DNA of 64,000 bases from an uncultured Bacteroidales bacterium (GTDB lineage Bacteria; Bacteroidota; Bacteroidia; Bacteroidales; CAYVNP01): contig CAYVNP010000006.1 of the NCBI GenBank assembly GCA_964452905.1, positions 1,004 through 65,003 of the forward strand, in the 5' to 3' direction. This document shows, one piece after another, positions 18,594 through 36,142 of this stretch. The notes under the pieces were generated by a model. It did not search any database, was not told where the DNA came from, and worked only from the letters and a program-made list of their open reading frames with translations. The number at the start of each line of letters is the position of its first letter. Within the stretch, counting starts at the first letter, position 1. The translations under genes were made by a program, and so were the position numbers.

Positions 18594-20399
18594 TTACATT
18601 CTTTCCGGTACATCAATACCGAGAAGTTTCATGGATTGCTTAATGATCCGTCCGGTAAATGCAGACATTTCCAAACGAAATGCAATCAGTTCTTTGTTCT
18701 CTTCTTTTAACATGGGTATATCCTGATAAAACTGATTGTATTCTTTCGCCAGATCATAAACATAATTTGCAATCAATGCAGGACTTAATCTGTCTGCTGC
18801 TTCAGCAATTACCTGCATAAAATCTGCAATTAATTTTAAAATATTTCTTTCCTTCGGATGAATTGAAATCTTTTCCGTAAACACTAATTCTTCCTGTTTG
18901 AATTTTTCATTTGCTTTTCTTAAAACAGATTGTATCCGTGCATGTGTGTATTGAATAAAAGGACCTGTATTGCCATTAAAATCGATGGACTCAGTTGGAT
19001 TGAACAACATCGTTTTTTTAGGATCCACTTTTAAAATAAAATATTTCAAAGCGCCGAGTGCAAGCATATTGTATAATTTCTGAGCTTCTGCGTCCGACAG
19101 ATCATTTGCTTTACCCAGTTCTGTTGACATTTTTTTTGCGGTAGCGATCATCTCTTCTATCAGTTCATCCGCATCCACCACAGTACCTTCGCGAGATTTC
19201 ATTTTCCCTTCAGGCAACTCGATCATACCGTACGAAAAATGAAAAATATCATCAGCCCAATCATATTTAAGTTTTTTCAATATTAATTTCAGAACATCAA
19301 AATGATAATTCTGTTCATTCCCCACCACATAGATCATTTGGGCGGGTTGGTATTCATCATAACGTTGACGGGCTGTTCCGAGGTCCTGTGTCATGTAAAC
19401 CGATGTGCCATCCGAACGGAGTAATAATTTTTCATCCAGACCTTCAGCACGAAGATCAGCCCATACAGAGCCATCCGGTCGTTTTACCAATGTGCCTGAT
19501 TGTAATCCGTCATCCACAATGGATTTACCTAATAAATAGGTTTGGGATTCATAATAAAATTTATCAAAGCTAACACCAAGATGACGATATGTTTCATCAA
19601 AACCCTTGTAAACCCAAGCATTCATCATCTTCCAAAGTTCAACCACTTCAAGGTCATGCGCTTCCCATTTTTTCAGCATCTCCTGCGCTTCAATGATCAA
19701 AGGGGCTGTACGCTTGGCTTCCTCTTCATTAATGCCTTTGCTTTTTAATTCATCAATTTCCTTTTTATAGTGTTTATCGAACAACACATAATACTTTCCA
19801 ACCAGGTGATCGCCTTTCAATCCGGATGTTTCCGGCGTTTCGCCTTGTCCCCATTTTTTCCAGGCGAGCATGGATTTACAAATATGTATCCCCCGATCAT
19901 TGACCAGATTGACTTTCACAACATTTTTCCCATTCGTCTTTAAAATCTCAGCTAAAGAAAAACCAAGCAAATTATTTCGTACATGTCCCAGATGTAAGGG
20001 CTTATTCGTATTCGGCGATGAATATTCAATCACATACGGTTTCGTTTTTTGTGATGAAAATATAGTAGAATGAGTTTGGTCTTTATTTTCAATAAAATAC
20101 GTTAGCCAGTAGGAATCATCAATAACAAAATTTAAAAATCCTTTTACAACATTAAATGATTTTAGATATGAAAAATTTGATTGAACATGTTCACCAATAA
20201 GTTGAGCCGTCTGTTCAGGTGATTTCTTGAATTTAGAGACAAACGGAAAAACATTGATGGTATAATCTCCTTCAAATTCTTTTCTGGTCTTCTGTAATAA
20301 TAAAAGCGGATCATTCTGTAAAATACTGAATCCTTCGCTGTTCAAGGTATTGATAGCATCACAAACTATTCGCTTAAGTTCTTCATTTAAATTTACCAT
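18594..20399 (-). CDS. argS: Arginyl-tRNA synthetase
   Basis: HLGHVRNN (HIGH-type) and MKSREG (KMSKS-type) motifs. I place the start at the ATG at 20397-20399; the track start at 20420 is a TTG. Confidence 0.93.
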   Translation of the reverse strand: MVNLNEELKRIVCDAINTLNSEGFSILQNDPLLLLQKTRKEFEGDYTINVFPFVSKFKKSPEQTAQLIGEHVQSNFSYLKSFNVVKGFLNFVIDDSYWLTYFIENKDQTHSTIFSSQKTKPYVIEYSSPNTNKPLHLGHVRNNLLGFSLAEILKTNGKNVVKVNLVNDRGIHICKSMLAWKKWGQGETPETSGLKGDHLVGKYYVLFDKHYKKEIDELKSKGINEEEAKRTAPLIIEAQEMLKKWEAHDLEVVELWKMMNAWVYKGFDETYRHLGVSFDKFYYESQTYLLGKSIVDDGLQSGTLVKRPDGSVWADLRAEGLDEKLLLRSDGTSVYMTQDLGTARQRYDEYQPAQMIYVVGNEQNYHFDVLKLILKKLKYDWADDIFHFSYGMIELPEGKMKSREGTVVDADELIEEMIATAKKMSTELGKANDLSDAEAQKLYNMLALGALKYFILKVDPKKTMLFNPTESIDFNGNTGPFIQYTHARIQSVLRKANEKFKQEELVFTEKISIHPKERNILKLIADFMQVIAEAADRLSPALIANYVYDLAKEYNQFYQDIPMLKEENKELIAFRLEMSAFTGRIIKQSMKLLGIDVPERM

Positions 20400-20431
20400 A
20401 TTCTCTAATCTAAACACCAATTAATTTTAAG

Positions 20432-20439
20432 CAAAAGTA
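20432..20439 (-). promoter_or_regulatory. Candidate -7 box (TACTTTTG) for argS
   Basis: The reverse complement of caaaagta is TACTTTTG, about 33 nt upstream of the argS ATG. Confidence 0.4.
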
Positions 20440-20517
20440 TTAATAATTCAGAATTTTTAATAATAATAAAGCAATAACAAATTGTTAATTCATTTTGAAT
20501 CAAAATTCAATCAAAAA

Positions 20518-22896
20518 CTAAAATTTATAACTTATTCCAAATTGAAAATTTCTCGGATTGCCTGGAGTGAAACAAATATCATTCACAGGTTGATTTTCTC
20601 CTTTTAATTTTGTTAAAGTTTCAAACTGAGCTTCATTCCAGTTGATATTAAAAATATTTTCACAATAAAATGAGAATAGAATTTTTTTTAACTGATAAGA
20701 AATGTTGGCATTAAAAATGGTATAGCCAGGTGCGGTAAGCGTATAATCCTCATCACCCGGGCGATTGCCAACATGCCTGAATCGAAATGCTCCACTAAAA
20801 CCTTTTTTGGGTAAAACACTTAAACCACCTGAAGCAACAACAACTGGGGCTAAAGGAACATGGTTATGACCTTTTGAGAGATTCTTTATTGTAGCATTTG
20901 CATAAGAAACATCTGCATCAAACCATAACCATGAAAGGAAAGGATAACGAAATTCGGCATCAATACCAAGTCGTTGAGTAGGATTGCTGAGTTCTGTTGT
21001 TCCTCCATCACCTGCATAAACATATTCTTTTTCTAAATATAAATACCAGACTGCAAGATTTACATGCAACTTTTTAAAAAGTTTTGTTTGTAGTCCCAAT
21101 TCCCCTGCTGTTGCTTTGGGTAATGTTGAAACACCATTCATCCCTGAATCAAAATTATACTGCTGAAGTTTAGTATTTATCTGGTTTTCATTCAGACCAT
21201 CTTGTTTCCAGTTAGATGTAAGATTACTGATCGTTTGTCCAATAATTATATCACGAGCATCATTGGAATGGAAGCCCTGACCAAAGTTCAAGTAAACTTC
21301 TATCTTTCGATTTGGTGAAAAAATAAAATTAATTTTCGGACTGAAAACAGATTTACTTGCCGTCCCTGAAGTATGAGGTAAACCGTTATTAGTAGTATCC
21401 AATGCATTACTTACATTATCATTTTTAGAAAATGTAAAATAATCATGACGAAGACCCCAAACAATTTTAAATTTCCGACTTAAAATATATTTCTGTTCTG
21501 CCCAGGCAAATAAATTTCGAATATCCACATCATCATTTGTAAATACATTCATTCGAACACGATTGGGACTATGCCATAATTGAACTGCAATATCATCTCC
21601 CCGATAACCGCAGCTAATTTTATTAAAACTCTTCAATCCAAAAAGATTTGCAGATAATTTATAGGTTGCATTTAATCCGCTGATGGTGCGATGTTCAGTT
21701 TGTTCAATCATATCACCGTGAATACTATCAAAAAGCAAATAGGTAAAATTGGAAAACAATTTAAAATTATAATTTGACATAAAAGCATGTACTTCAAATT
21801 CATTTCCTTCGGTTGAAAGAAAATTGTATGAAAGATTTATATTTTCTCTATTCGTATTACCGCCTTCATTGTGATCTAATGCACCAAACCGACTGATTAA
21901 ACCTTGCTTCACAGCCCGTTCAGGTATTTGTCCGGATGCATTCCATCCTGTGTTAAAACCACTAAAAGAAAAAGTTAGTTTACTATTATGAGTAAGTTGA
22001 AAAAAATATTTCCCAAATACATTCATTCGTTGAAAACCTTCCTGTGTTTTATAAGGACCATCGGTATGAAAATATTGAGCAGCCAAATAACCGTTTTGTT
22101 CCTTTCCTCCTTTATTAGGTTGAAGCAGAAGCGTATATTTCTGCGTATTAAACTGACCTGCTTCTAATTTGAAAAGATTATGATCCAAAACATCTTTTGT
22201 TTTAAATGATACTGCGCCGGCTGTATAAAAATCACCATATTTTGCCAGATAAGGACCTTTATTCACTTCCATCTCATCGACAGTTTCGGCAATGAGAAAA
22301 TGCAGATCTGCATACCCCTGACCATGCGCATGTGTGGGCATATTAACCGGCATCTCATCAACATTCACAGAAACATCGGTGCCATGATCACAATCAAACC
22401 CTCTAAGAAAAATCTGTTCTGCTTTACCTCCTCCCTGATGTTGTGCAATAAACAATCCAGGTACCATCAATAACATATCCTGAGACGAACGGATCGGTTT
22501 TAATTGCATATCAATTGCTCTAATCTCTTTGGATGATGCGGCAGAAAAGGAGTTTGTTGTTTCAATGGTCAGTTCATTCAGGTCAATAACAGATTCTAAC
22601 ATTTTAAAATGTATCGTATCGGTGACATTTTCTTTCACTATAATTGAAACATTCATTGTCTTATAACCAATCTGTGAACAGATTAATTCATAATTACCTA
22701 TTTGAATATTTTTTATTTCATAAATCCCTGAAATATCTGAAACTGTTCTTATTAATGTTCCTTTAATTTGAATAATAGCCCCTATGATTGGTGCACCATC
22801 TTTTACATCTGAAACTCTACCAGTTATTGTCCCTGCATTATGGGCGTAAATAAAGAAAGGAAAAATATAACTAATTAAAAAAAATAAATTTCTCAT
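20518..22896 (-). CDS. TonB-dependent receptor with CarboxypepD_reg N-terminal domain
   Basis: Signal peptide, GTITGRVSD...IIGAIIQIKG regulatory-like domain, plug (FLRGFDCDHGTD), 22-strand-sized barrel, terminal aromatic residue (YKF). Confidence 0.85.
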   Translation of the reverse strand: MRNLFFLISYIFPFFIYAHNAGTITGRVSDVKDGAPIIGAIIQIKGTLIRTVSDISGIYEIKNIQIGNYELICSQIGYKTMNVSIIVKENVTDTIHFKMLESVIDLNELTIETTNSFSAASSKEIRAIDMQLKPIRSSQDMLLMVPGLFIAQHQGGGKAEQIFLRGFDCDHGTDVSVNVDEMPVNMPTHAHGQGYADLHFLIAETVDEMEVNKGPYLAKYGDFYTAGAVSFKTKDVLDHNLFKLEAGQFNTQKYTLLLQPNKGGKEQNGYLAAQYFHTDGPYKTQEGFQRMNVFGKYFFQLTHNSKLTFSFSGFNTGWNASGQIPERAVKQGLISRFGALDHNEGGNTNRENINLSYNFLSTEGNEFEVHAFMSNYNFKLFSNFTYLLFDSIHGDMIEQTEHRTISGLNATYKLSANLFGLKSFNKISCGYRGDDIAVQLWHSPNRVRMNVFTNDDVDIRNLFAWAEQKYILSRKFKIVWGLRHDYFTFSKNDNVSNALDTTNNGLPHTSGTASKSVFSPKINFIFSPNRKIEVYLNFGQGFHSNDARDIIIGQTISNLTSNWKQDGLNENQINTKLQQYNFDSGMNGVSTLPKATAGELGLQTKLFKKLHVNLAVWYLYLEKEYVYAGDGGTTELSNPTQRLGIDAEFRYPFLSWLWFDADVSYANATIKNLSKGHNHVPLAPVVVASGGLSVLPKKGFSGAFRFRHVGNRPGDEDYTLTAPGYTIFNANISYQLKKILFSFYCENIFNINWNEAQFETLTKLKGENQPVNDICFTPGNPRNFQFGISYKF

Positions 22897-22946
22897 ATTG
22901 ATAATATTACGTTTTTTATATTCGTGTTACTTTATGATTAAAAAAA

Positions 22947-23348
22947 TTATTCGATATCAGTCATCACCAATTTACCGTGTTTTATTCCTTTGGTCGCAAT
23001 AATTTTATCTGCCAGTTTAATCAGTTTTTGCGCATTTCCTTTGACAGCAATTGTTTCAAGGCATAGGTCGTGAGCCAAATGAACATGTTGCGTTGAAAGA
23101 ATAAGATCATGAAAATCATGCTGTACATCCATTAATTTACTGTTCAATTCTCTTTTATGGTGATCATAAACAATCACAATAGCGCCGGCAACAATTTTAT
23201 TTTTATCCCATTTTTCTGCAACAAGCGTATTTTTTATCAGAAAACGAATTGCCTGTGAACGATTGGGAAATTGGTTTTTAAGAACCATTTTATCCAAATC
23301 ATTCAAAGCATTTTCCTCAAGGGACACGCCAAATCTTTTTATATTCAA
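22947..23348 (-). CDS. nikR: Nickel-responsive regulator NikR (RHH plus metal-binding domain)
   Basis: The N-terminal ribbon-helix-helix (RFGVSLEENALNDLD...RSQAIRFLI) and QHVHLAHDLCLE align with E. coli LHVHINHDDCLE. H88, H90, C96 and H77 correspond to E. coli H87, H89, C95 and H76. Confidence 0.85.
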   Translation of the reverse strand: MNIKRFGVSLEENALNDLDKMVLKNQFPNRSQAIRFLIKNTLVAEKWDKNKIVAGAIVIVYDHHKRELNSKLMDVQHDFHDLILSTQHVHLAHDLCLETIAVKGNAQKLIKLADKIIATKGIKHGKLVMTDIE

Positions 23349-23411
23349 GGTGTTATCAAATTAAAATTCGTAGCACAAAAATAAAAAAAAACTAATATAA
23401 AACAAATTAGA

Positions 23412-24212
23412 TCAATTAAATTTTATAAAAAATAGATCCCTCCCATTTTCTTTGGCTATTTGCATTGCCGGTTGGTTTTGCATAATAGAGCCACCCCATT
23501 TGTTAAAATCAAATTCATGTGGTGTTTCAAACCAACTGTCAACGTGCATGATGATTTGAATTTCTTTTGTTTCACCTGATTTTATTGTGAAATAAGAGTT
23601 TAGCAATTTGACTGTAAAGTAGTTTTGAACATAACCTATAATTGAATCCGTATTAAAAGTGTTTCCTTTGTAAAGCTGCCCAATACCTAAATGAAAATCA
23701 AAACTTTGAATGTAATTTACTGTGTCTTTCCATTTTCCATTAAGCATCAGGTAATGATACCCACCCCCGAGTATATCAGGCCAGCTCATATTAACTTCAG
23801 GGGGATTGACAAATATGAATGATTTATTTTTTTCTTTAGTAATGCCTAAAACAAATGTGATTGAATCATAAGTACCTGTGGGGATTTTGTCATATACCTG
23901 CCAAGAGAGTGTTGATGGAATATTGCTATCAACATAATATATATCATTCCATTCATTTATCATTTTGATTGTACCATCGGATTTATAAAATGTTACATCT
24001 GAGATAAAATATTTAATCTCTGTAACAAGATAATGATTACCAGCTTGATTAATATATTTCAATGTATCAAATTGAATAGGCTGACCATTTACCTGATGAG
24101 CAAATGAAAAAATAATTCTACCTGTATGATCATTGGTTGTTTCAGGATTTTTATCTTTTTTACAGGATAAAAACAAAAGCAGAATACAAACAAACTGAAA
24201 ATAATGTTTCAT
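23412..24212 (-). CDS. Lipoprotein, possibly MbnP-like periplasmic metal-binding protein
   Basis: Lipobox LFLSC. The pattern IKYFISDVTFYKSDGT...GTYDSITFVLGI...FDFHLG resembles my recollection of the MbnP family. Its start codon directly abuts the stop of the upstream receptor gene. Confidence 0.5.
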   Translation of the reverse strand: MKHYFQFVCILLLFLSCKKDKNPETTNDHTGRIIFSFAHQVNGQPIQFDTLKYINQAGNHYLVTEIKYFISDVTFYKSDGTIKMINEWNDIYYVDSNIPSTLSWQVYDKIPTGTYDSITFVLGITKEKNKSFIFVNPPEVNMSWPDILGGGYHYLMLNGKWKDTVNYIQSFDFHLGIGQLYKGNTFNTDSIIGYVQNYFTVKLLNSYFTIKSGETKEIQIIMHVDSWFETPHEFDFNKWGGSIMQNQPAMQIAKENGRDLFFIKFN

Positions 24213-26318
24213 TTATAAATTTACTTCAACATTAATAAAAAAAACTCTTCCCGGTTCATACAATTTTGTTGTACTTCCAATTATTTTCCTGTTAAGATGT
24301 TCGTAATATGGGTGATTAAGCATATTATCAATACCGACAGAAATAGTTGCAAAGGAATATAATTTATATGATAATGCAACATTCAATAAAGCAAATCCCG
24401 ATGAGCTTGGTTCATAAAATGCATTGGATGTTCTTTTTTGTGGTGCAACAACTCTACATATTAACTTTGGTGTAAATTTATTTTTCAACATCTTATAATA
24501 AATAGACAGAGTTGTTTCAAAAGGAGGTATTTCCGGCAAAGGATCGTTTTTAATTATTTCATCTCCGGTAACATTACCTCCTTGAACTATATATTTTGTT
24601 GTAGATGGGATTGTCGCTTGTGTAAAAGCAGCAATTATTGTTCCACCCCATTTAAATCTTTCGGGCGAAGAATATCCACATTCAAACCCTTGCAGATTAA
24701 CTGCATCAACATTAACAAATTGTTTAACACCCAATGCACCCTGTGTTTTTGGTGTTGCAACTGATGGTGGCAATTTCTGACCCGTAATATAATTGGTAAC
24801 ATACGAATAGAAACCATTTACATAAATTGAGCCGTATTTAGTATTTGCATATTCAATTGTTAAATCCACTTGATGGTTTGCTTCAGGTTTCAGTTGTGGA
24901 TTGCCCAAATAATCATAATTGTCATATCCTACTGCTAAAAATTTAATATATCGTTCAAGCATGTTAGCATTTCTGACACCTCGACCAGCAGCTAATCCAA
25001 CTGTAATGTATTTGGTTATCTTTTTATTTAAACCTATACTGAAATTATTAAACTGAGAAGAATTCTTTTTAAAATATTCAATATCGCTTTTTACTAATTG
25101 AAGCGTATCATCAGATGAAGCAATATTGTGATCAGCTCTAATTGATGCAGTGAAATCTATTGACTTGAATTTAGTTTTATATTCAGCAAAAAGTCCGGTA
25201 TTTTGTATAAAGGCATCATTCCATAAATTTGAAATTTTTGTTGATTTAGTTGTAATACCGCCCATAGTCATTATCATGGTTGTTGTTTTCCCACCATTTT
25301 TTTCAATCTGTTCGTAGTCAGCACCAATATTGAAAATATGCTTGCCAACATTCAAACCTATTTCTGCTCTTCCTCCACTATTTAATGCATCAACAACTGA
25401 AACGGCTTGCATCGTATTATAATTAGACCTTCTACTATTGTCCATTACATGATCTACATCTGAACGGTAAATTTTTAAATCTACAAAATTAATGATCTTT
25501 GATATTTTCTGTCCGTGATAATCAACAGACATGATTTTTGTATCATCACTTTTTTCATCCATAGGCAGAGACGGATAAGATACGTCACGACCATGTGTTT
25601 CATAATAGGAAAATAAAATAGAATGATTTTCTTTTAAGCATATTCCCAAATCACCATTATAGTTATATTTCATGAATGAAGAATTGATGGTATTTTCATT
25701 CCCATCTTTGTAACTGCCGTAGTTTTTATATCCACCGGCAACATTAAAGTAAATATTTTTATTTCCGCCAAAAACCGATACTCGTTCACGTTGACCGTTC
25801 CAGTTAGATTCAAAACCATATAATGCTTTCGTGTGAACTGAAAATTTGTTATAAAATATTGGCTGTTTAGTTACTAGATTAATAACACCTCCCATCGATG
25901 AACCATATTTTAATGAATAGGGACCTTTGATGATTTCTATTTTTTCAATGTCTTCAACTTCTACATGAGATGTAACAGGATCCATGCGGTTAGGGCAACC
26001 GCCTTCAACCTTAACACCATTATTTAAAATCACATTCAACTGGCTATAGCGAAATCCTCTTACCACCGGGTCAATCCCTGCACCTCCTTTACGAACACCT
26101 GAAACATTAGGCGTACTACGAAGTAAATCTCCAATATCGCGAATATTCTTAATACTTAGCAGGCTGTCGCTTATAGTTGCAATGATGTATGGAATGGGCT
26201 TATTTGCTTGTATTAGCACAGTGTTTAATACACGAATCGAATCTCTTTTAATTTGTGCTTCAATAAGTAATTGGGTGCAAAAAAACAATATAAAAAGAAA
26301 TATGTATTGCTTATTCAT
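24213..26318 (-). CDS. TonB-dependent receptor, OprC/NosA-like (copper-type binding site)
   Basis: GGCPNRMDP (C108-x3-M112) and DHVMD (H290-x-M292) reproduce the CxxxM-HxM copper site of P. aeruginosa OprC. The Cys-to-His spacing is nearly identical (182 vs 180 residues). An LPMDE motif is also present. Confidence 0.8.
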   Translation of the reverse strand: MNKQYIFLFILFFCTQLLIEAQIKRDSIRVLNTVLIQANKPIPYIIATISDSLLSIKNIRDIGDLLRSTPNVSGVRKGGAGIDPVVRGFRYSQLNVILNNGVKVEGGCPNRMDPVTSHVEVEDIEKIEIIKGPYSLKYGSSMGGVINLVTKQPIFYNKFSVHTKALYGFESNWNGQRERVSVFGGNKNIYFNVAGGYKNYGSYKDGNENTINSSFMKYNYNGDLGICLKENHSILFSYYETHGRDVSYPSLPMDEKSDDTKIMSVDYHGQKISKIINFVDLKIYRSDVDHVMDNSRRSNYNTMQAVSVVDALNSGGRAEIGLNVGKHIFNIGADYEQIEKNGGKTTTMIMTMGGITTKSTKISNLWNDAFIQNTGLFAEYKTKFKSIDFTASIRADHNIASSDDTLQLVKSDIEYFKKNSSQFNNFSIGLNKKITKYITVGLAAGRGVRNANMLERYIKFLAVGYDNYDYLGNPQLKPEANHQVDLTIEYANTKYGSIYVNGFYSYVTNYITGQKLPPSVATPKTQGALGVKQFVNVDAVNLQGFECGYSSPERFKWGGTIIAAFTQATIPSTTKYIVQGGNVTGDEIIKNDPLPEIPPFETTLSIYYKMLKNKFTPKLICRVVAPQKRTSNAFYEPSSSGFALLNVALSYKLYSFATISVGIDNMLNHPYYEHLNRKIIGSTTKLYEPGRVFFINVEVNL

Positions 26319-26337
26319 ACAATAAAATTATTACTAT

Positions 26338-26357
26338 AACAAATATATCAAAAATCA
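26338..26357 (-). promoter_or_regulatory. Promoter with shared 20-mer (contains the TATATTTG -7 box) upstream of the OprC-like receptor
   Basis: aacaaatatatcaaaaatca is identical to 29815-29834. The reverse complement reads TGATTTTTGATATATTTGTT, and the -7 box ends about 22 nt from the ATG. Confidence 0.5.
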
Positions 26358-26401
26358 ACAGCAGTAGTTATTCCAAGTATTAACCTAATAAAAAAACATT
26401 C

Positions 26402-26689
26402 CTAATTGACTCTTTTAAAAACCAGTTTTGTTTTATCAACCCAATACATAGCATTCACATCACACGCAATAACACAAAGCCCACAAGCATCACATTTTTT
26501 GTATGAGAATACATAGTGTGCCGGATTACAAGGCACCTTCATGGAAATACAGTATTTAATACATTTAGCGCAAGTATTATTTGTGGCATTCTTTATTGCT
26601 CCTGTCGGGCAGGCTATCATGCACTTATCACATCTAATACATTTTGATGAATCTATGACAGGTATATTTTTTAGAGAAGTTTTATTCAT
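26402..26689 (-). CDS. Small poly-ferredoxin-like 4Fe-4S protein
   Basis: 95 aa with two CxxCxxCxxxC motifs (CIRCDKCMIACP, CDACGLCVIACD) plus an extra CAKCIKYC...C run. No signal peptide. Confidence 0.75.
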   Translation of the reverse strand: MNKTSLKNIPVIDSSKCIRCDKCMIACPTGAIKNATNNTCAKCIKYCISMKVPCNPAHYVFSYKKCDACGLCVIACDVNAMYWVDKTKLVFKRVN

Positions 26690-26721
26690 TTGTAATATTT
26701 AGCAAAATTGTTTGATGTATT

Positions 26722-28962
26722 TCATTTAATAAAATTTAATCCGAATGGTACTTTCAATCTTAAAGAAATGTTTCTGCCGGGATTGTACAAATTTACTTCT
26801 TTTAATGTTGATAGATGATCAACATATTTTTTGTCAAGGATATTATTTGCACCAATTGCTATTGATACAAATTGTTTTCTAAATTTAATATTACCGCCAA
26901 TACAAAAATCTAACAATGTGTACCCAGCAGTAGTTGTTTCATCTGGAGCAGCATGATTTTGGTCAAAAGCTGTATTTGTATTTACAGAGAAATAAACTTT
27001 TTGCAGAAATAATAATTTTTCTTTTTCGGCTCGAAATTCAAACTTTAATTTATTAGCAGGAACAAATGGTAAAAAATCACCGTTTTGTTGTTTGCCTTTA
27101 ACCATAGAAAATGTACTTTCAAAATGCAACCATTTTAAATAGTTGGGATGAAAATGAATGCCGGCTTCACCACCAAATAAAACAGCATTTGTTTGTTTAT
27201 ATTTGTAAATATTAATGCCAGAAGAAGTCGCATCATCTGTTGGTGAAATAAATATGTAATGATTGATAATATTGTAAAATCCTGCAACATCAAAAGTGAA
27301 ATTATCTATATGATAATGTGTACTAAAATCAATCTCGTATGAGTTTTCAGATGTCAGGTTTCTGTCACCAACTTCATAACGCGTTTCGTGTTGTCCATTT
27401 GAAGTAAGCTCTGCCAAATTTGGCGTACGATAAGCAGAAGCAACGTTTGTTCTAAATAACAATTTTTCCGAAATATTGTATGTTGTTCCAATTGATCCGC
27501 TGAAACTTCCATAATTCTTTTCAAGCGGAACATGAAATCCTGAATCCTGAGGCAAGCCAATAGCCTTAGTTGAAATAGTTTTATTATCATAGCGAATACC
27601 TGTCTGTAATTTTAGTTTTTTGAAAAAAGCATGTTGTAATAAAGCAAATGCAGAATAATTATTTATAGCGGCATCCGGTAATATTTTGGTTGTTCTGTCA
27701 TTCATATTTGTATTCATTTGATTTAAACCCTGAAAACCGACAATGTATTCTGAATTTTTATTTGATGGCAAATGAAGTCGTGCTTCATAAGTGAGTGTCA
27801 CGAGCTTCATTTGTATTTCAGTAACATTAATTTCGCCAAAATGAATTAATTCGGTATTTTGATAAGCTGAATTCAGATCGAGTTTAAATTTACCGAGATA
27901 TAGTTTATTTTGTGAAGACAACAGATGAGTGTTTAATTGCTGGTACCAGATTTTATTTTCTCTTGCTCTTTTAGTAATTTCTTTAATAGCTTGATCTTCG
28001 ACTAAGCCAAGTTTTTGATTATTGAAATCATAAAACAGTTTGAATGTACCAACTTTCCCGGTGTAACCTGCATTTGCCTTTAGAGAATATTCATTAAAAC
28101 GCGAGTTGGGAACAAAAGCACCGCCACCTTGCAGAAAATCGGCATTTGTTTTTTGACCAATTCTAATTCCGCCAAAGAATTTTTTCGATGCTCCTTTAAT
28201 TCCTATATTATTGGTCATTCCGAGTGTACTTGAAAAAAGTTGCAAATTGTAATCACCTATAATACTACCAACAGGCGCGGGTTTTTCTTTAATAAAATTA
28301 ATAACCCCACCTATTGCATCGGATCCATAGAGCAATGAAGCCGGCCCTTTGATAATTTCAATATCTGCTATTCCAAATTCATCAATGCCGAGAGGATGAT
28401 GACTGGAATACTGATAATTTTCAAACCGCACACCATTATTCAGAATTAAAATGTCATTCATTGAAAGACCACGAATTACCGGTTTTGAAACGCCACTTCC
28501 TTTTGAGATCATATCTACACCAGGCACTTTGGTTAACACTTCAGCAAAATTAGGTGTGTTAAGAGTTGTGAGAGAATTCAATTTTAAAACATCAATTTTT
28601 ACAGCATTATCATGCTGTGTTGAATTAAATCCACTTGTAACAACAACCGCTTCCAGTTCAATAGTTAATCGTTTCATAATAATATTTAATTCTACAGTGC
28701 CGCCATTCAGTACAACGGGTTCAATTAGGTTAGTACGTTCTATAAATGAAAATTGAATCTTAAATTTTCCATCAGGCAGATTCGATAATTCATATTTTCC
28801 ATTTGTATCTGATACTGTACTTTTATTCATTTCCAAAAGGAATACATTTGCCCCAGCCAATGGTACATTATTCTGATCTGTGATTTTACCTGTGATTTTA
28901 TTTTGTGATTTTACGTTATGACATAAAAATATCATAACGCATATAATAAATATATTTTTCAT
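26722..28962 (-). CDS. TonB-dependent receptor with CarboxypepD_reg N-terminal domain
   Basis: Signal peptide, ITGKITDQNNVPLAGANVFL domain, plug (VIRGLSMNDILILNNGVR), barrel. I place the start at the ATG at 28960-28962; the track start is a TTG. Confidence 0.85.
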   Translation of the reverse strand: MKNIFIICVMIFLCHNVKSQNKITGKITDQNNVPLAGANVFLLEMNKSTVSDTNGKYELSNLPDGKFKIQFSFIERTNLIEPVVLNGGTVELNIIMKRLTIELEAVVVTSGFNSTQHDNAVKIDVLKLNSLTTLNTPNFAEVLTKVPGVDMISKGSGVSKPVIRGLSMNDILILNNGVRFENYQYSSHHPLGIDEFGIADIEIIKGPASLLYGSDAIGGVINFIKEKPAPVGSIIGDYNLQLFSSTLGMTNNIGIKGASKKFFGGIRIGQKTNADFLQGGGAFVPNSRFNEYSLKANAGYTGKVGTFKLFYDFNNQKLGLVEDQAIKEITKRARENKIWYQQLNTHLLSSQNKLYLGKFKLDLNSAYQNTELIHFGEINVTEIQMKLVTLTYEARLHLPSNKNSEYIVGFQGLNQMNTNMNDRTTKILPDAAINNYSAFALLQHAFFKKLKLQTGIRYDNKTISTKAIGLPQDSGFHVPLEKNYGSFSGSIGTTYNISEKLLFRTNVASAYRTPNLAELTSNGQHETRYEVGDRNLTSENSYEIDFSTHYHIDNFTFDVAGFYNIINHYIFISPTDDATSSGINIYKYKQTNAVLFGGEAGIHFHPNYLKWLHFESTFSMVKGKQQNGDFLPFVPANKLKFEFRAEKEKLLFLQKVYFSVNTNTAFDQNHAAPDETTTAGYTLLDFCIGGNIKFRKQFVSIAIGANNILDKKYVDHLSTLKEVNLYNPGRNISLRLKVPFGLNFIK

Positions 28963-29029
28963 TTTAAACGCTGTATTCAATAAACAAATTTTTAGTTAGT
29001 ACCCCGAAGGATGCTATAATGCAATTTGT

Positions 29030-29335
29030 TTACAATGGAGGTGCTCTTAATAAAAATGAATATTTTGAAAGAATGGAAGAGGAACTAAAACGATAATTAT
29101 TGCAGTATTGATCTGATGGTTGTTCGTTTTCAAGATTGACATTTTTAATTTCTGATGAAAAAAATGAAAAATCAAAAATACAGATTTCACATTTCTCGTG
29201 ATAGTTGTGATAATGTTTCTCGTTTTTCGCTTTGCAAATAAAATGTTTGTGATGATGTTCCATCTTAACTATTGAAGGTGCAAGAAAAACAAACACCAAC
29301 AATATATATGTAATATGATTAAGCTTTTTTATCAT
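29030..29335 (-). CDS. Small membrane-anchored His/Cys-rich protein (HYC_CC_PP-like?)
   Basis: N-terminal TM helix, then MEHHHKHFICKAKNEKHYHNYHEKCEIC (8 His and 3 Cys in 28 aa). It ends ...LLRAPPL. The family name is recalled, not verified. Confidence 0.5.
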   Translation of the reverse strand: MIKKLNHITYILLVFVFLAPSIVKMEHHHKHFICKAKNEKHYHNYHEKCEICIFDFSFFSSEIKNVNLENEQPSDQYCNNYRFSSSSILSKYSFLLRAPPL

Positions 29336-29352
29336 TTAATTAAAATGAGTGT

Positions 29353-29772
29353 TTAAAAAGTCAACACAATTTTATTATTTCTGATTAATTCATACAAATC
29401 TTTTAATGATGAGAATTTACAAATCTGTGGTTCATTATTCTTTCGACTTTGTAAACATGTACCGCAACCAAGTATAACACCACCACTATGTAAAAACTCA
29501 TCAGCTTGTTCTTTTATATTTTTATTTTTTTTTACAATGTTATCGAGTTCAATACCTTTTCCAAGAAGAAAAATACGTACGGTGTCACCTTCTTTTTGGG
29601 AATAATTAGCAAATCGTAATGCATTCCAGATTGTTTCAACATCATTGGAATAGATTACAATCCCAATGCTTGTTGCTTTAGTAGTTTTGGTAGCTGTTCC
29701 GCCACACTGCGCATAAATATTGAGAAAAGATATGCTCCACAGGATTGTCAGAAAAATAAATATTTTTTTCAT
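29353..29772 (-). CDS. Exported DsrE/DsrF-like protein
   Basis: Start placed at MKKIFIF (29770-29772). Signal peptide ending ...YAQC, then a DsrE-like alpha/beta core (IGIVIYSND...VRIFLLGKGI...GGVILGCGTCLQSR). Confidence 0.7.
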   Translation of the reverse strand: MKKIFIFLTILWSISFLNIYAQCGGTATKTTKATSIGIVIYSNDVETIWNALRFANYSQKEGDTVRIFLLGKGIELDNIVKKNKNIKEQADEFLHSGGVILGCGTCLQSRKNNEPQICKFSSLKDLYELIRNNKIVLTF

Positions 29773-29814
29773 TTTAATTCTAATTTTAAAAATTAATAAT
29801 GATTCTATTTGAAA

Positions 29815-29834
29815 AACAAATATATCAAAAATCA
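29815..29834 (-). promoter_or_regulatory. Promoter with shared 20-mer (TATATTTG -7 box) upstream of the DsrE-like gene
   Basis: Identical 20-mer to 26338-26357. The -7 box at 29817-29824 lies 45 nt upstream of the ATG at 29772. Confidence 0.5.
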
Positions 29835-29939
29835 TCAATAGGTAAGTAAGCGAGTATTTTCGGGTTTGCCAAGTTCTTTGCCATTTAATCTCTGATATTT
29901 CTTTTTAATATCATAAGTATATTTCATGGTATCTTTCAT
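29835..29939 (-). pseudogene. Duplicated 3'-terminal fragment of the hdrB-like gene (34-codon ORF)
   Basis: Translates to MKDTMKYTYDIKKKYQRLNGKELGKPENTRLLTY*. The HdrB-like C-terminus reads MKYPFDIKKKYQGLNDKDLGKPKNNRLLSCC*. Nucleotide similarity is visible over about 95 nt with 30434-30530. Confidence 0.6.
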
Positions 29940-29944
29940 AATTA

Positions 29945-30388
29945 TTAAATGTTCTCATTGGATTTTGATTTATTTAATTTTATTGGGGTTGGTCCTAATT
30001 TTTTAATGGTATTAACCATTTCGTTAATTGTATTCACCAGCGTGGTACCTCCGGCGGCTGAGTTATTTACCATGCGCAGACGTTCTTTCTCAATACCGCA
30101 TTCTTCAAGAATATTTCTGGTAGCATTAACACGTTTCTTTGCAAACAAATTGCCATCAATAAAATGACAACCACCTTCAAGGCAACCGGCAACTAATACC
30201 CCGTCAGCTCCGTTTTCAAAAGCTCTCATATAATATTCAACTTCCAGCCTGCCTGTACAGGGAGTGCGGATGATGCGAACATTAGGCGAATATTGAAGTC
30301 GCATTGAACCTGCTAAATCTGCTGCTGCATAAGCGCAGTAATGACAAAAGAATGCGACGATTTTAGGCTCAAAATTTTTATCATTCAT
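29945..30388 (-). CDS. MvhD/FlpD-like iron-sulfur protein (methyl-viologen-reducing hydrogenase delta subunit family)
   Basis: IVAFFCHYCAY...RTPCTGRLE...VAGCLEGGCHF, the conserved Cys pattern of MvhD. Confidence 0.8.
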   Translation of the reverse strand: MNDKNFEPKIVAFFCHYCAYAAADLAGSMRLQYSPNVRIIRTPCTGRLEVEYYMRAFENGADGVLVAGCLEGGCHFIDGNLFAKKRVNATRNILEECGIEKERLRMVNNSAAGGTTLVNTINEMVNTIKKLGPTPIKLNKSKSNENI

Positions 30389-30433
30389 AATTTTTATTGT
30401 TACTTTTTTTAATTAAAATATAATCTGTCTGAT

Positions 30434-31504
30434 TCAACAACAGGAAAGCAAACGATTATTCTTAGGTTTGCCAAGGTCTTTGTCATTCAATCCCTGATAT
30501 TTTTTCTTAATATCAAAAGGATATTTCATCTTATTCAGCAAAGGCGCAACATCTACCTGATGTACTTGTAATCCTATATCCCAAGGGTTGTAGCCAAGTA
30601 TTAATCCTGCTAATTCTTCATAAGTTAATACAGGAATGCCATATCCTTTATCATCGAAGGAAGTGTCTGTCATTTCACTGATCACATATTGCCATCTGTC
30701 CATAAAAAAATTACACCCCGGGCAGTTGGTAATAATTAAATCAGGATTGTATGGCTTCATTGAATCAAATTTCTTTTTTGTATTTGCAACAGAATAGCCC
30801 CTGTTTGCTTTAATAAGATATTGCCTGAATCCAAAACCGCAGCAATGTCTGCGTTCTGGATAATCCACGCGATCACCACCCCATTCATCAATAAGTCCGG
30901 CTAAAACATACGGATATTCTGCGCCTCCAATACCTTTATCAGGAAAGATTTTTGCATAATGACATCCGATATGTTCAACTACTTTTAATGGTTCGCCTGT
31001 TGTTTTATTATGTAATTTAAATTTTGCTTTTGCAGAAATTTCTTTACGGAATTTATAAATCACATCACTGGTGTGAACCAGATTCTTAGGTGGTACAAAA
31101 TCTTTTCCTGTAGCTTGTTTTAACAATTCTTTCGTTTTTTTCAATGTTACAGGAAAGTGTTTCCATGTTTCCAATACTTCACCATAAATGCCAAAAGAAG
31201 TAACACATGAACAAACAAAATTTTCATAACCAGCTTCATTCATCAGTGCAAACTGGCGGGCAACAACTGTCATCGTGGTTTCCATCGGAATAATGCCTGA
31301 ATGATAGGCAATACCTGTGCACGTTGTTTGACGGGGATCATCAAAAATATCTTTCCCCAACTCTATATTAAGAATCTTCAAAAATAATTCTTCGGCAGCA
31401 GGTAATACATTTTGTCTGATACAGCTTCGTGCAAAATAGTAGTTATCATCAGCAATTTCTTTCTGATAAGTCAACCAGGTTTCAGATGCTTTTTCTGTTT
31501 TCAT
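30434..31504 (-). CDS. Heterodisulfide reductase subunit B-like (CCG-domain protein)
   Basis: Canonical C-terminal CCG domain (C...HCCGFG...NCPGC) and a degenerate N-terminal one. Overlaps the hdrC-like stop by 4 nt. Confidence 0.8.
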   Translation of the reverse strand: MKTEKASETWLTYQKEIADDNYYFARSCIRQNVLPAAEELFLKILNIELGKDIFDDPRQTTCTGIAYHSGIIPMETTMTVVARQFALMNEAGYENFVCSCVTSFGIYGEVLETWKHFPVTLKKTKELLKQATGKDFVPPKNLVHTSDVIYKFRKEISAKAKFKLHNKTTGEPLKVVEHIGCHYAKIFPDKGIGGAEYPYVLAGLIDEWGGDRVDYPERRHCCGFGFRQYLIKANRGYSVANTKKKFDSMKPYNPDLIITNCPGCNFFMDRWQYVISEMTDTSFDDKGYGIPVLTYEELAGLILGYNPWDIGLQVHQVDVAPLLNKMKYPFDIKKKYQGLNDKDLGKPKNNRLLSCC

Positions 31505-32202
31505 TTTAATGTATGTTCACCATTATAGACCATTTTGAAATAATCATCACTCGTATCTTTACCATAAGAAACACCGAGTTCTTGCGCTTTTTGTTCTGAA
31601 TATTTTTCAATTTTTTCAAATCGTTCGGTTGCGCCTGTTAGATCAAAAATCTTTTGTAAATCATTTAATGATTCCTGACAAATTTTTCTGAGAGTACCTG
31701 CTCCATCGCCTTTATAGTTAGCACCTAATCTTTCCAGAATATCTGTTGCATTTTTCCTCATCCATTCCCAAACAGGTCCTTGTTCTGGATACATATCAGT
31801 ATTAATTTCATCAAAATAAACACAATAGCCGTATTTCAAAATATGCTCACCAATAGTACGTTTTAAAGCCAATTGCTGACGACCTTTTTCTGATTCAATA
31901 AATAATCCGGTTTCTATTGATAAAGCTCTTAATGCCTGAATTACATAGCCGGGTACATTATTTCTTGGACAACGTGTTTTACAGCTTAGGCATTCTCCAC
32001 ACATCCAAATCATATCGCTTTTTAACAAAGCTTCAATTTCATTTTCATTTCGGGATTGAACAGTGTCAACTATCCTACGGGGATCGTAATCATAAAACTG
32101 TGCAGCCGGACATATTGCTGTACAAGTACCACAATTGATACAAGCAGACAACCCTTCAGTAAAACGGATATCCTTAGCTAATAGTTTGTACCAAAGTTCC
32201 AT
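31501..32202 (-). CDS. Heterodisulfide reductase subunit C-like (2x[4Fe-4S])
   Basis: CINCGTCTAICP and CGECLSCKTRCP motifs, 233 aa. Confidence 0.8.
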   Translation of the reverse strand: MELWYKLLAKDIRFTEGLSACINCGTCTAICPAAQFYDYDPRRIVDTVQSRNENEIEALLKSDMIWMCGECLSCKTRCPRNNVPGYVIQALRALSIETGLFIESEKGRQQLALKRTIGEHILKYGYCVYFDEINTDMYPEQGPVWEWMRKNATDILERLGANYKGDGAGTLRKICQESLNDLQKIFDLTGATERFEKIEKYSEQKAQELGVSYGKDTSDDYFKMVYNGEHTLK

Positions 32203-32295
32203 ATATTGAATTTTTTTCTATACTATTTAACATTTTTCTTATAGCTGATAATACGGAGCATTGCTTTTTAAAATGTTAGAATTAAAAAATGTATT

Positions 32296-33003
32296 TTATT
32301 TTTTCTTTTCAATATATTCAATAATTATTTTTTCAACTTCACTCATTCTGAAATCATATTCTTTTCTTAACCACCCAAGTTTTTGTTTATCAGAAATTGT
32401 CTTTGGAATGTTCAGTTTTGTTTTTATGTATTCAGACGGAACAAAATATTTTTTCGACACATCTTCAAGAGTCATATACCCTTTTACTTCAATCGAATTA
32501 GAATGATTGTGTGTTTCTAAGGAATGATCTTTATCAGTGTGGCTATTTTTTATTGGAGAGATAACTTTTTTTTCGCTTATAGGATTGTTAGTGTGGTATT
32601 TTACTTGTCGTCCCTTTCCTTGTTCAATTTCAACTACTTCAGGGTTAATTATAAATGAAATAAAAATTAAAAAAACAGAAATAATAATGAATAATGATGC
32701 TATTATTTTTCGTGCCATTTTCCTTTGTATTAGTTTATTATATATACAAATTATAACATTCCAATGTAAAATAATATGAAGCACTAATAACCCAAGTAAT
32801 ATAAATCCAATTACGAGATGAATAGTCCCCCATTCATGTCTATCCATTCCCCAAAAATAAAGATCAACATTTTTCTCATACTTAATCCATCTTTCTTGTC
32901 CTGGAATCAATGTGAATTTTATTAAAAAACCTATCCCGGCAATAGCTGACATACATAAAAACATTAATCCATTTATTATGAAATTCAGAAGTGATTGATT
33001 CAT
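32296..33003 (-). CDS. DUF4405-like cytochrome-b-type membrane protein with a soluble C-terminal domain
   Basis: Four TM helices with conserved His (RHEWGTIHLVIGFILLGLLVLHIILHWN), followed by a roughly 90-aa soluble tail. Confidence 0.65.
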   Translation of the reverse strand: MNQSLLNFIINGLMFLCMSAIAGIGFLIKFTLIPGQERWIKYEKNVDLYFWGMDRHEWGTIHLVIGFILLGLLVLHIILHWNVIICIYNKLIQRKMARKIIASLFIIISVFLIFISFIINPEVVEIEQGKGRQVKYHTNNPISEKKVISPIKNSHTDKDHSLETHNHSNSIEVKGYMTLEDVSKKYFVPSEYIKTKLNIPKTISDKQKLGWLRKEYDFRMSEVEKIIIEYIEKKK

Positions 33004-33076
33004 GATAATTTTTTTACATAATAATAAAACATTTATTTATAGGGAACATGTCTTTAATTGAATAAAAGTGTTATTG

Positions 33077-33586
33077 TTAATGATAAGGATCGGAAAAATC
33101 CATTGCATAATAAACAGTATTACTTTGCAAAGCAAGGATAGAATTATGATTGAATTCTCTATCTTTAACCACAAGAGTAGTGACAGGTGCTTTAGACGTT
33201 TTATTAAATAAAATGTCATGCCCCATACATAAACCTAATGTGATATTGAGTTCAGTTTTGCTTTGTGACAGTTCATGTGCCTGACCGACCGGATTACAAG
33301 TCAGTCCTTTTGCTTCATAACCAAGAATCTCTTTTGAAGGAACCCTCCCTATTTTACAGTTTGAAGTAAAAACATCAAATTCATCAGATAATAGTTCTTT
33401 CAATTTATCAGCTTCTTTTTGGAGTGCAACACAATTTGCAATACCTATACGCTTATATCCAGATAGGCGAGCGAATTTTTTTATTTCTTCCACTCGGTTT
33501 TTACCTACAATACGGGCATCCTCTGCTATCTGCATGATTTTTTTATCTTCGTCAGTATATAATTCTTGAATATTGTTATTTTCCAT
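33077..33586 (-). CDS. DUF1847-like putative metal-binding protein
   Basis: IGIANCVAL...CKIG...CNPVGQA...LGLCMGHDILF...TTLVVKD pattern with four spaced Cys. Confidence 0.6.
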   Translation of the reverse strand: MENNNIQELYTDEDKKIMQIAEDARIVGKNRVEEIKKFARLSGYKRIGIANCVALQKEADKLKELLSDEFDVFTSNCKIGRVPSKEILGYEAKGLTCNPVGQAHELSQSKTELNITLGLCMGHDILFNKTSKAPVTTLVVKDREFNHNSILALQSNTVYYAMDFSDPYH

Positions 33587-33596
33587 GTTATGTTCG

Positions 33597-34037
33597 TTAA
33601 TGAAAGCTCGTTTGTAATTCAGATACTTTAATTGTATTAAATGTATGAAGGATATTAATTATGTTTTCTGGCGGATGACAAGGTTGTCGACTTCCTTTAT
33701 GTATAAAAGCAACAACGATTTTAGCTTCATTAATCAGTTCACCTGCTGCATTAAACATTTTATATGAAAAAAAAATTCGAGCACCTTTGATATTATTCAA
33801 AGTAGTTTCAATGGTGAGCAAATCATCATAAAACGCAGGTTTAATAAATCGAAATGTCATATCTGTTACAGGAAGCAAATAGTTGTCTTTTTCAATAGAC
33901 TTATATGAGATACCTACCTTGCGTAATAATTCCCATCGGGCGGTTTCATAATACCTAACATAATTGGAATGATGCATAAAACCCATCTGATCGGTATCAG
34001 AATACTTAACCCGTTGTTTTGTTAAATTTGTGTACAT
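33597..34037 (-). CDS. Acyl-CoA thioesterase, YbgC/4HBT hotdog family
   Basis: YSDTDQMGFMHHSNYVRYYETARWELLR, a typical 4HBT N-terminus with catalytic Asp. Confidence 0.8.
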   Translation of the reverse strand: MYTNLTKQRVKYSDTDQMGFMHHSNYVRYYETARWELLRKVGISYKSIEKDNYLLPVTDMTFRFIKPAFYDDLLTIETTLNNIKGARIFFSYKMFNAAGELINEAKIVVAFIHKGSRQPCHPPENIINILHTFNTIKVSELQTSFH

Positions 34038-34043
34038 AATTGA

Positions 34044-34409
34044 TTAATGATTATGACAGTCAGCTTGTCCTTCATGTCCGCCACATCCGATACCACTGTC
34101 TGTTAATGTACCATTTAAAAATGATTCGGCAACTTCTTTTGGATGTCCGCTACATCCACGAATTACATTAATACCGTGCTGATTTAAAACATTTAAAGCA
34201 CCCATACCCATATTACCGGCAAGCATTACTTCTACGCCTGTTCTTTGTAAAACCCCAGCTATATTTGACTTACAACCACATCCTTCAGGTGATTTGATCG
34301 TTTCTTCATAAATAATTTCTTTTTCGTCAACAGTAAATACAGTATATGATTCGCAATGACCGAAATGATCATCAATTCTGTTTTCTCTTGTTGGAACTGC
34401 AATTTTCAT
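34044..34409 (-). CDS. NifB/NifX-family (dinitrogenase Fe-Mo cofactor biosynthesis domain) protein
   Basis: MKIAVPT...DDHFGHCESYTVF... plus a Cys/His-rich C-terminus (GCGGHEGQADCHNH). Confidence 0.8.
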   Translation of the reverse strand: MKIAVPTRENRIDDHFGHCESYTVFTVDEKEIIYEETIKSPEGCGCKSNIAGVLQRTGVEVMLAGNMGMGALNVLNQHGINVIRGCSGHPKEVAESFLNGTLTDSGIGCGGHEGQADCHNH

Positions 34410-34431
34410 TTTTTTCTCCTTAATTTATTAT

Positions 34432-35265
34432 TTAGTTATTTTTATTGATTTCTGACATGTAATATATTTGATTTAGTGATTGAGCTAATAAACTAAAAGC
34501 ATTCTTCCCTGTACAATGCCCGGTAAAGAAAGAAGCATCGGGAAGTAACAGTTTCAATTCTTGTCCTATAAATAATAACTCATCATCTTTTTCAGTTTCT
34601 ATAAATTCATTTTTATCTATCAAATGAAATCCGCCAATAACCTTGATAATCCTTTCGTTTGGGAAAAAATTCTTAACTGTAGATACTACATTCAAAATGC
34701 CAAGGTGTGAACAACCGCTGAAGATGGTTAAGCCATCCATTGATTTTACTAAAAATATTAATTCATGTAAAAAAACATCATTCACAAAATTATTATCCTG
34801 TTCTTTCAATAACAGTTTATTTCCTAATGGCAGCGGATATTGCCTATCAATCCTGATAATGAATAATAGATTATCTGAAATAAAACAATCATTCTGAATA
34901 AATACAAAGCGTTTATCATATTTTAACAATTCATTAGAATATCCAATGTGCTTCATAGCTCCGTTTCTAATGGAAAAATATTGACTGGCGAATATTTCAT
35001 TTTTAAGAAATACTTTTGCTTTTATATTGTATTGTAGAAAAGGTATTAAACCACCAATATGATCAGAATGTCCATGAGATATAACAACGGTATCAATATC
35101 CTTCAAATCAACATTCAACTTTTCGGCATTATGCATGAATAAATCTGAAGCACCTGTATCAAAAAGAATTTTATGCGCTACAGTTTCAATATAAAGTGAT
35201 AACCCATGTTCGCTTTTCAGTGTATCTGAAACTAAATTATTTTCTATTAGTGGTATGATTTTCAC
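34432..35265 (-). CDS. MBL-fold metallo-hydrolase, COG1237 type
   Basis: SEHGLSLYIET...ILFDTGAS...VISHGHSDHIGGL (HxHxDH motif), 277 aa. Confidence 0.8.
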   Translation of the reverse strand: MKIIPLIENNLVSDTLKSEHGLSLYIETVAHKILFDTGASDLFMHNAEKLNVDLKDIDTVVISHGHSDHIGGLIPFLQYNIKAKVFLKNEIFASQYFSIRNGAMKHIGYSNELLKYDKRFVFIQNDCFISDNLLFIIRIDRQYPLPLGNKLLLKEQDNNFVNDVFLHELIFLVKSMDGLTIFSGCSHLGILNVVSTVKNFFPNERIIKVIGGFHLIDKNEFIETEKDDELLFIGQELKLLLPDASFFTGHCTGKNAFSLLAQSLNQIYYMSEINKNN

Positions 35266-35291
35266 TCGATTTTATAGAGGGTTAATTTGTT

Positions 35292-35615: not shown

Positions 35616-35617
35616 TA

Positions 35618-36043: not shown

Positions 36044-36065
36044 AAAATAATTTATTTCTGCAAAG

Positions 36066-36087
36066 ATAATGAACATTTGTTCATTAT
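36066..36087. promoter_or_regulatory. Perfect 10-bp inverted repeat (candidate operator) in the divergent promoter region
   Basis: ATAATGAACA-tt-TGTTCATTAT, 23-44 nt upstream of the DUF134 start and about 55 nt upstream of the opposite -7 box. Confidence 0.5.
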
Positions 36088-36142
36088 TAATATTTTTTTT
36101 ATCTTTGTTTAAAAATATTTTGAACTAAACAAAAAAGTATTT

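Follow-up and report, generated by a model that had tools for sequence, protein, structure and literature searches.

Copper and nickel uptake systems closest to the locus

OprC of Pseudomonas aeruginosa and NosA of P. stutzeri represent a TonB-dependent transporter of ionic copper, and the copper/silver site of OprC is formed by C143, M147, H323, and M325 (PDB 6FOK; PMC8610252). Because a flavobacterium is already known to have an OprC-like receptor with the CxxxM/HxM motif (PMC11213822), the OprC-like family is not new in Bacteroidota. In a second copper system, MbnP binds copper through His, Met, and kynurenine-174, the kynurenine arising through the action of MbnH on the first of the two Trp residues in a WxW motif (PMC11951088). 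In the NikR regulons of delta-proteobacteria, which include nikMNQO, the signal is a GTGTTAC-[N13/14]-GTAACAC box whose half-sites vary in orientation (PMC545781). Here, we describe a locus of an uncultured Bacteroidales bacterium in which relatives of all three systems are neighbors. The DNA analyzed, referred to below as the window, is a stretch of 64,000 nucleotides (nt) from GenBank assembly GCA_964452905.1 (contig CAYVNP010000006.1, positions 1,004 to 65,003 of the forward strand).

Three genes of the window lie co-directionally on the minus strand, separated by gaps of 0 and 63 nt. They encode an OprC-family TonB-dependent receptor of 701 amino acids (P0001; 24213–26318), an MbnP-family lipoprotein of 266 amino acids with its lipobox Cys at position 17 (P0002; 23412–24212), and the nickel-responsive repressor NikR, which has 133 amino acids and a TTG start codon (P0003; 22947–23348). 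The next gene on the same strand encodes a second TonB-dependent receptor, P0006 (20518–22896), which has 792 amino acids and a Pfam CarboxypepD_reg domain at its N-terminus and is a candidate nickel receptor. The original prediction, which was made from the DNA sequence, took the first three genes as copper-type uptake hardware paired with a nickel-type sensor, and proposed either that the receptor imports nickel through a soft-ligand site or that this NikR responds to copper. Our analysis did not bear out the pairing. Most probably, the locus consists of two independent outer-membrane metal-uptake modules that merely adjoin each other, head to tail, on the minus strand: module A (26357–23412), comprising the OprC-family receptor and its lipoprotein, and module B (23383–20518), comprising nikR and P0006. 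With this, copper hardware beside a nickel sensor is no longer a paradox, and no new metal specificity has to be invoked.

The receptor is an OprC-family member

P0001 contains Pfam plug and barrel domains and, in the whole protein, a single CxxxM motif (C108PNRM112, in the plug) and a single HxM motif (H290VM292, in the barrel). OprC (6FOK) was by far its best sequence match in the PDB (phmmer, E = 2.7e-36). In this alignment, GGCPNRMDP of P0001 is matched with GACPNRMDA of OprC, and DHVMDN with DHIMDN, so that C108, M112, H290, and M292 fall on C143, M147, H323, and M325, as had been predicted; the predicted similarity in spacing was also found, with 182 residues from Cys to His in P0001 and 180 in OprC. 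An AlphaFold model of P0001, with a mean predicted local distance difference test score (pLDDT) of 72.8, was compared with solved structures using Foldseek, and the top 28 matches were all OprC (E = 1e-43; template-modeling (TM) scores 0.77–0.84), followed by PhuR as the next protein (E = 1.7e-37). OprC was the best match in both sequence and structure. P0001 shares with OprC and NosA the plug and 22-strand barrel and the CPNRMD and DH(I/V)MDN blocks, but it is only approximately 21–22% identical to OprC in the structural alignment, its host belongs to the Bacteroidales, its gene is directly followed by that of an MbnP-like lipoprotein, and a copper enzyme that could be its partner, such as NosZ, was not found in the genome.

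The tetrad is also conserved among orthologues. Together with its flanking residues, it was invariant in 25 homologues of P0001 with 50–61% identity, and it was kept in 124 of 129 full-length family representatives with 28–50% identity. Judged by these comparisons, P0001 is a member of the OprC family whose copper site appears to be intact.

The lipoprotein is a divergent MbnP

The ATG of P0002 immediately follows the stop codon of P0001, with 0 nt between the two open reading frames (ORFs), as the original prediction had noted, and P0002 is translationally coupled to the receptor. The protein passes the Pfam MbnP model (PF20243; 86.3 bits against a cut-off of 27) and scores below the cut-off of the TIGR04052 model, MbnP_like_WxW (23.9 bits against 140), which was not reached in any of the 301 Bacteroidota genomes sampled. 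Sequence and profile searches of P0002 against the PDB returned no MbnP match even at E = 10, and the link to the solved MbnP (7L6G) was reached by fold comparison only: when a structural model of P0002 (pLDDT 79) was searched with Foldseek, 7L6G chains were the sole matches at E ≤ 0.001 (best E = 3e-6, TM score 0.55). The predicted resemblance to MbnP was thus recovered both by the Pfam family and by the fold.

Residues M142, W144, H153, and H174 were invariant in 27 homologues of P0002, and the WxW motif is absent from P0002 itself. In the best-scoring Bacteroidota relatives in the TIGR04052 search, one WxW is present in each protein, within the sequence M-x-W-x-W-N-x-G-Y. This segment aligns with M142-S-W144-PDILGGGY of P0002, and a conserved His of the relatives aligns with H174. 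The alignment of M142-x-W144 with the M-x-W of the relatives suggests that the first Trp was kept and the second lost, so that P0002 would retain the Met/Trp/His site and lack only the second Trp.

P0002 is a divergent MbnP. It shares the fold and the Pfam membership of MbnP from Methylosinus trichosporium OB3b, and it has a conserved Met-x-Trp and a conserved His that line up with the WxW region of the Bacteroidota proteins. In contrast, it is only 11–13% identical to the Methylosinus protein, lacks the second Trp of WxW, is a lipoprotein rather than a soluble periplasmic protein, and is paired with an OprC-type receptor instead of the methanobactin receptor MbnT. Lys, Asp, and Glu are abundant after its lipobox Cys, and we take this stretch to resemble the surface-export signal of Bacteroidota lipoproteins; P0002 is possibly surface-exposed.

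MbnP-like and MbnH-like proteins are the usual partners of the receptor

To compare gene neighborhoods, we examined 24 receptor loci, of which 20 came from genomes within the order and four from metagenome contigs. An MbnP-like gene followed the OprC-like receptor gene in 17 of the 24 loci, and in 11 of the 20 genome loci, which are orthologous to P0001–P0002, the MbnP-like gene was followed by a gene for an MbnH-like dihaem peroxidase. The operons of this MbnH type are arranged in the order receptor, small lipoprotein of approximately 120 amino acids, MbnP-like protein, and MbnH-like protein, sometimes with an additional Ig-like surface protein; a check of these loci for copper-related neighbors turned up only the small lipoprotein, Ig-like surface proteins, and DUF2027/Smr genes. 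Among anaerobic Bacteroidales, pairs of an OprC-type receptor and an MbnP-like lipoprotein are widespread. In this order, genes for MbnP-like and MbnH-like proteins usually accompany those of the OprC-type receptors, which joins two copper systems that have been studied separately. The small lipoprotein, which has no family match, was seen between the receptor and the MbnP-like protein at L048:10997–11368, L054:10995–11357, L057:8664–9023, and L059:11019–11399. This conserved gene is missing in the window.

The absence of an MbnH-like gene had also been predicted. This held for the locus, where no dihaem peroxidase gene was found and P0002 differs from the MbnP/MbnH arrangement, as does the clade to which the window belongs, which is without MbnH at the receptor locus. 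It did not hold for the genome, whose sole CCP_MauG gene lies on another contig (C24), has MbnH (TIGR04039) as its best family, and is located two genes after a paralogue of P0002 with 52% identity. At this second MbnP locus (L039:6304–11862), a 960-amino-acid protein with a weak match to TolB propellers comes first, followed by the MbnP paralogue, an inserted GIY-YIG gene, and the sole MbnH-like dihaem enzyme.

NikR and its operator boxes

NikR passes the NCBIfam model NF003381 (151.9 bits against 105) and matches NikR_C (PF08753) with 111.6 bits, whereas its RHH_1 match is weak. As predicted, its residues H77, H88, H90, and C96 align with the conserved His/His/His/Cys of the NikR structures of P. 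horikoshii, H. pylori, and E. coli, in which the numbering of the nickel ligands is well established. It is the only NikR of the genome, and it is a genuine one.

A comparison of nikR loci revealed boxes consisting of two 7-mers (GTAACAC/GTGTTAC and variants) that are 13–15 nt apart, mostly 13–14, with an AT-rich spacer. In the box upstream of nikR, the left half is fused to a −7 box of the form TAnnTTTG, and the right half stops 1–2 nt short of the start codon; a second box lies just past nikR, ahead of the next gene. The window has the same two elements. The promoter and operator of nikR (23350–23383, minus strand) consist of the −7 box TATTTTTG fused to box A (23350–23376; GTGCTAC-N13-ATAACAC), which lies within the 63-nt gap and ends 1 nt before the nikR start codon. 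Box B (GTAACAC-N13-GTAATAT; 22904–22930, minus strand) lies before P0006. In sequence, in spacing, and in the variable orientation of their half-sites, these boxes correspond to the published NikR signal of delta-proteobacteria (PMC545781). Of 29 nikR loci of the order, 16 had the layout of box A with the −7 box upstream of nikR, and 10 had an equivalent of box B between nikR and the gene that follows it; both features were also found in the metagenome loci L077–L080.

A box scan using a consensus with mismatches gave 126 matches and was dropped as too noisy, and we used a position weight matrix (PWM) trained on 26 sites, all from other genomes. Box B, with 24.6 bits, outscored every other site in the 4.18-Mb genome; the maximum in three shuffled genomes was 22.7. 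Box A scored 18.0–18.1, depending on the strand. The remaining matches across the genome were inside genes. Within the surrounding gene island, no other intergenic region scored above 2.4, and the score upstream of the OprC-like gene was 0.4. NikR boxes are present only before nikR and before P0006, and none precedes the OprC-like receptor gene.

The two modules also have separate promoters. The OprC-like gene has its own, in a segment at 26338–26357 (minus strand) with the 20-mer TGATTTTTGATATATTTGTT, which holds the Bacteroidota −7 box TATATTTG, and nikR has its own promoter and operator, described above. In a scan with a sigma-70 promoter model, which is inapplicable to Bacteroidota, matches were no more numerous than in shuffled sequences, and an Rfam scan of positions 20000–38500 yielded no matches.

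nikR and P0006 form a recurrent, probable nickel-uptake unit

In Helicobacter pylori, FrpB4 provides NikR-controlled, TonB-dependent uptake of nickel. The gene neighborhoods suggest that P0006 is the true partner of NikR in the window and a candidate nickel receptor. Relatives of P0006 with 65–74% identity were encoded directly after a 133-amino-acid nikR in four of four metagenome contigs, with both boxes present, and three of these four contigs continue with CbiM, PDGLE, CbiQ, and an ABC ATPase, that is, a NikMNQO-type transporter. Full operons of nikR, P0006-type receptor, CbiM, PDGLE, CbiQ, and ABC ATPase were seen at L077:3498–9355, L078:3543–9260, and L079:3544–9269; they would be combined outer- and inner-membrane nickel uptake systems of Bacteroidales-like organisms. 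Among the genomes, the P0006 orthologue in G070 follows nikR, and that in G068 has a NikR box even though nikR is located on another contig. The G068 site (L061:2900–3080, on contig C37 of that genome) has a NikR box ending in GTAACACGATG, then a frame of nine codons, and then a second half-box, an arrangement that looks like the remnant of a deleted nikR start. In tblastn searches, a receptor gene was located directly downstream of nikR in 8 of 29 other nikR loci, and further nikR genes in this order are followed by HupE/UreJ-like or CbiM-like genes.

The combination of nikR, two GTAACAC-type boxes, and a P0006-family receptor, often with NikMNQO-type genes next to it, represents a nickel-uptake unit of Bacteroidales. 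Neither nickel import through a soft-ligand site nor a copper-responsive NikR is needed to explain the locus. The unit resembles known NikR regulons in that nikR is predicted to be autoregulated and to control uptake genes, and it resembles nikMNQO systems in that its relatives carry nikR–receptor–CbiM/Q/O operons. It differs from them in its Bacteroidales host and in that CbiM and CbiQ were not found in this genome. A HupE/UreJ-like gene (C26:47602–48306) was considered as a NikR-controlled inner-membrane nickel transporter and was rejected, as it has no upstream NikR box. Its product is 51–54% identical to those of genes that follow nikR elsewhere. The genome also encodes a [NiFe]-hydrogenase large subunit (C36:36584–37843).

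The best PDB sequence match of P0006 was YncD/PqqU (E = 1e-9), and P0006 has no solved close relative. P0006 belongs to a family with a CarboxypepD_reg N-domain, and its unit provides a well-defined candidate nickel receptor outside Helicobacter. At a fourth metagenome locus (L080:3499–8101), a nikR–receptor pair is followed by two small ORFs and then a distant MbnP-family gene. Its product shares approximately 21% identity with P0002 in the N-terminal part and carries EMWF where P0002 has M-x-W. The association of MbnP-fold proteins with metal receptors may not be limited to copper.

nikR is adjacent to the copper-type pair in this genome only

Among 151 sampled genomes of this order, NikR was present in 42 and the OprC-like receptor, counted at E ≤ 1e-60, in 40; both occurred in 14 genomes, and approximately 11 would be expected by chance. 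In all 13 of the other genomes with both genes, nikR and the receptor were located on different contigs. When six local proteins were searched with tblastn against 29 other nikR loci (±1.5 kb), no MbnP-like or OprC-like neighbor was found. A relative at the level of the same genus encodes a receptor with 91%, an MbnP with 84%, and HdrBC/MvhD with 94–96% identity, and its contigs contain no nikR. The position of nikR beside the copper-type pair is a chance juxtaposition, found only in this genome.

The gene order around the pair has also changed. In the relative (L036), the order is DsrE, CGGC, receptor, MbnP, 101-amino-acid protein, P0005-like receptor, and ferredoxin. In the window, unlike in L036, the receptor–MbnP pair is placed after the ferredoxin; it has moved relative to the genes for P0005, a haem/ZnuD-like receptor (26722–28980), and P0004, a small 2x[4Fe-4S] ferredoxin (26402–26689), both of which were assigned with Pfam and NCBIfam, are on the minus strand, and lie outside both modules. 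The 20-mer at 26338–26357, before the receptor, is found in identical form at 29815–29834, before the DsrE-like unit. It was rejected as a conserved operator because no conserved copy precedes the receptor genes of other genomes, and for the same reason it probably marks a local rearrangement, during which the promoter was duplicated.

Proposed functions and alternative explanations

The alignment and fold match to OprC, the conservation of the tetrad, the MbnP fold, and the receptor–MbnP–MbnH gene order all suggest that module A is of the copper type. Read from its own promoter, it would produce the receptor and the coupled lipoprotein. By homology with OprC, the C108/M112 and H290/M292 site of the receptor would bind a soft metal in ionic form, with Cu(I)/Cu(II) as the most likely candidate, and TonB-driven movement of the plug would then release it. 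The lipoprotein would likely take over the metal at M142/W144/H174, a site homologous to the copper site of MbnP, in which W144 might be matured to kynurenine by the MbnH-like dihaem enzyme encoded on the other contig. In module B, nickel-bound NikR is predicted to act on the two GTAACAC-N13-type boxes, one at its own promoter and one before P0006, and would thereby shut off the putative nickel receptor when nickel is sufficient.

Several observations weigh against this reading. The copper assignment is by homology alone: the best NCBIfam model for P0001 was TIGR01778 (TonB-copper), with a score of 252 bits, under its equivalog cut-off of 472.45. The plug loop at residues 100–117, which carries C108–M112, was modeled at a pLDDT of <50, and the convergence of the four residues on one site is suggested by the OprC homology only. 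Box A, at 18 bits, is by itself within the range of the shuffled genomes, and it is its conserved position, not its score, that supports it. The genome encodes no CuA-domain (COX2) protein, and hence no NosZ and no haem-copper oxidase subunit II, and no multicopper oxidase, these two being the only cuproenzyme families searched for. Finally, neither a terminator scan nor folding detected an intrinsic terminator between the P0002 gene and nikR, and some read-through from module A into nikR is therefore possible.

This last point leads to the alternative that survives best, in which the modules are separate in function and nikR is partly co-transcribed with module A, which, in this genome alone, would couple the NikR level and hence nickel uptake to the signal that drives the copper-type promoter. 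The 63-nt gap contains no GC-rich hairpin (best fold −5.3 kcal/mol, z = −0.54), and the terminator scan found no terminator on this strand; nevertheless, a complete −7 box and operator are located inside the gap, as at stand-alone nikR genes. The arrangement is also not conserved, so any coupling would be recent and not selected across the lineage. We consider such co-transcription unlikely.

Less likely again is that, in this anaerobe with few cuproenzymes, the OprC-like/MbnP-like pair serves something other than copper nutrition, either by handling another thiophilic metal or by supplying copper to an anaerobic pathway linked to the neighboring DUF134/NifX/HdrBC/DsrE island. The missing COX2/CuA and multicopper oxidase proteins are consistent with this idea, as are the placement of the receptor beside DUF134, NifX-like, HdrBC-like, DsrE-like, and ferredoxin genes in its own clade and some others, and the identical promoter 20-mer before the receptor and the DsrE-like unit. 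However, DUF134, NifX-like, HdrBC-like, DsrE-like, and small ferredoxin genes occur near the receptor in only 5 of the 24 loci, and the majority have receptor, MbnP, and MbnH without the island; the tetrad is that of the copper/silver site of OprC (PMC8610252); the 20-mer is not conserved; and the cuproenzyme search was restricted to two families. In the clade of the window, the pair lies within this conserved island of iron-sulfur and sulfur-redox genes. We regard it as similarly doubtful that the pair delivers a soft metal, copper or other, to an anaerobic pathway not yet recognised, in which case the lipoprotein would help the receptor to capture the metal at the cell surface; if true, this would be a role beyond those of the known OprC and MbnPH systems.

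The one-operon explanation, in which receptor, lipoprotein, and NikR function together and either the soft-ligand receptor imports nickel or NikR senses copper, is highly improbable: it could draw on the co-directional genes with their short gaps and no detectable terminator before nikR, on the MbnP-family gene approximately 1 kb after the nikR–receptor pair at L080, and on the tight binding of Cu(II) by the NikR site in vitro, but of the 14 genomes that encode both nikR and the receptor only this one has them adjacent, the closest relative does not share the arrangement, the receptor has no NikR box and nikR has a promoter and operator of its own, the NikR of the order is found with nickel systems (CbiM/Q/O, HupE/UreJ-like, P0006-type), the usual partners of the receptor are MbnP and MbnH and not NikR, and the L080 MbnP is related to P0002 only distantly and in its N-terminal part.

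Surrounding genes

A co-directional island lies at 29030–38300 of the window. It comprises genes for DUF134, two NifX-like, MBL, thioesterase, DUF1847, and DUF4405 proteins, together with HdrC/HdrB-like proteins, MvhD, an exported DsrE-like protein, and a His-rich protein of 101 amino acids. The same gene set recurs beside the receptor in the metagenome contigs L033, L035, and L036. Elsewhere in the genome, a 741-amino-acid HMA-domain protein, a probable P1B-ATPase, is encoded at C39:1427, and an HMA protein of 141 amino acids is encoded on contig C64.

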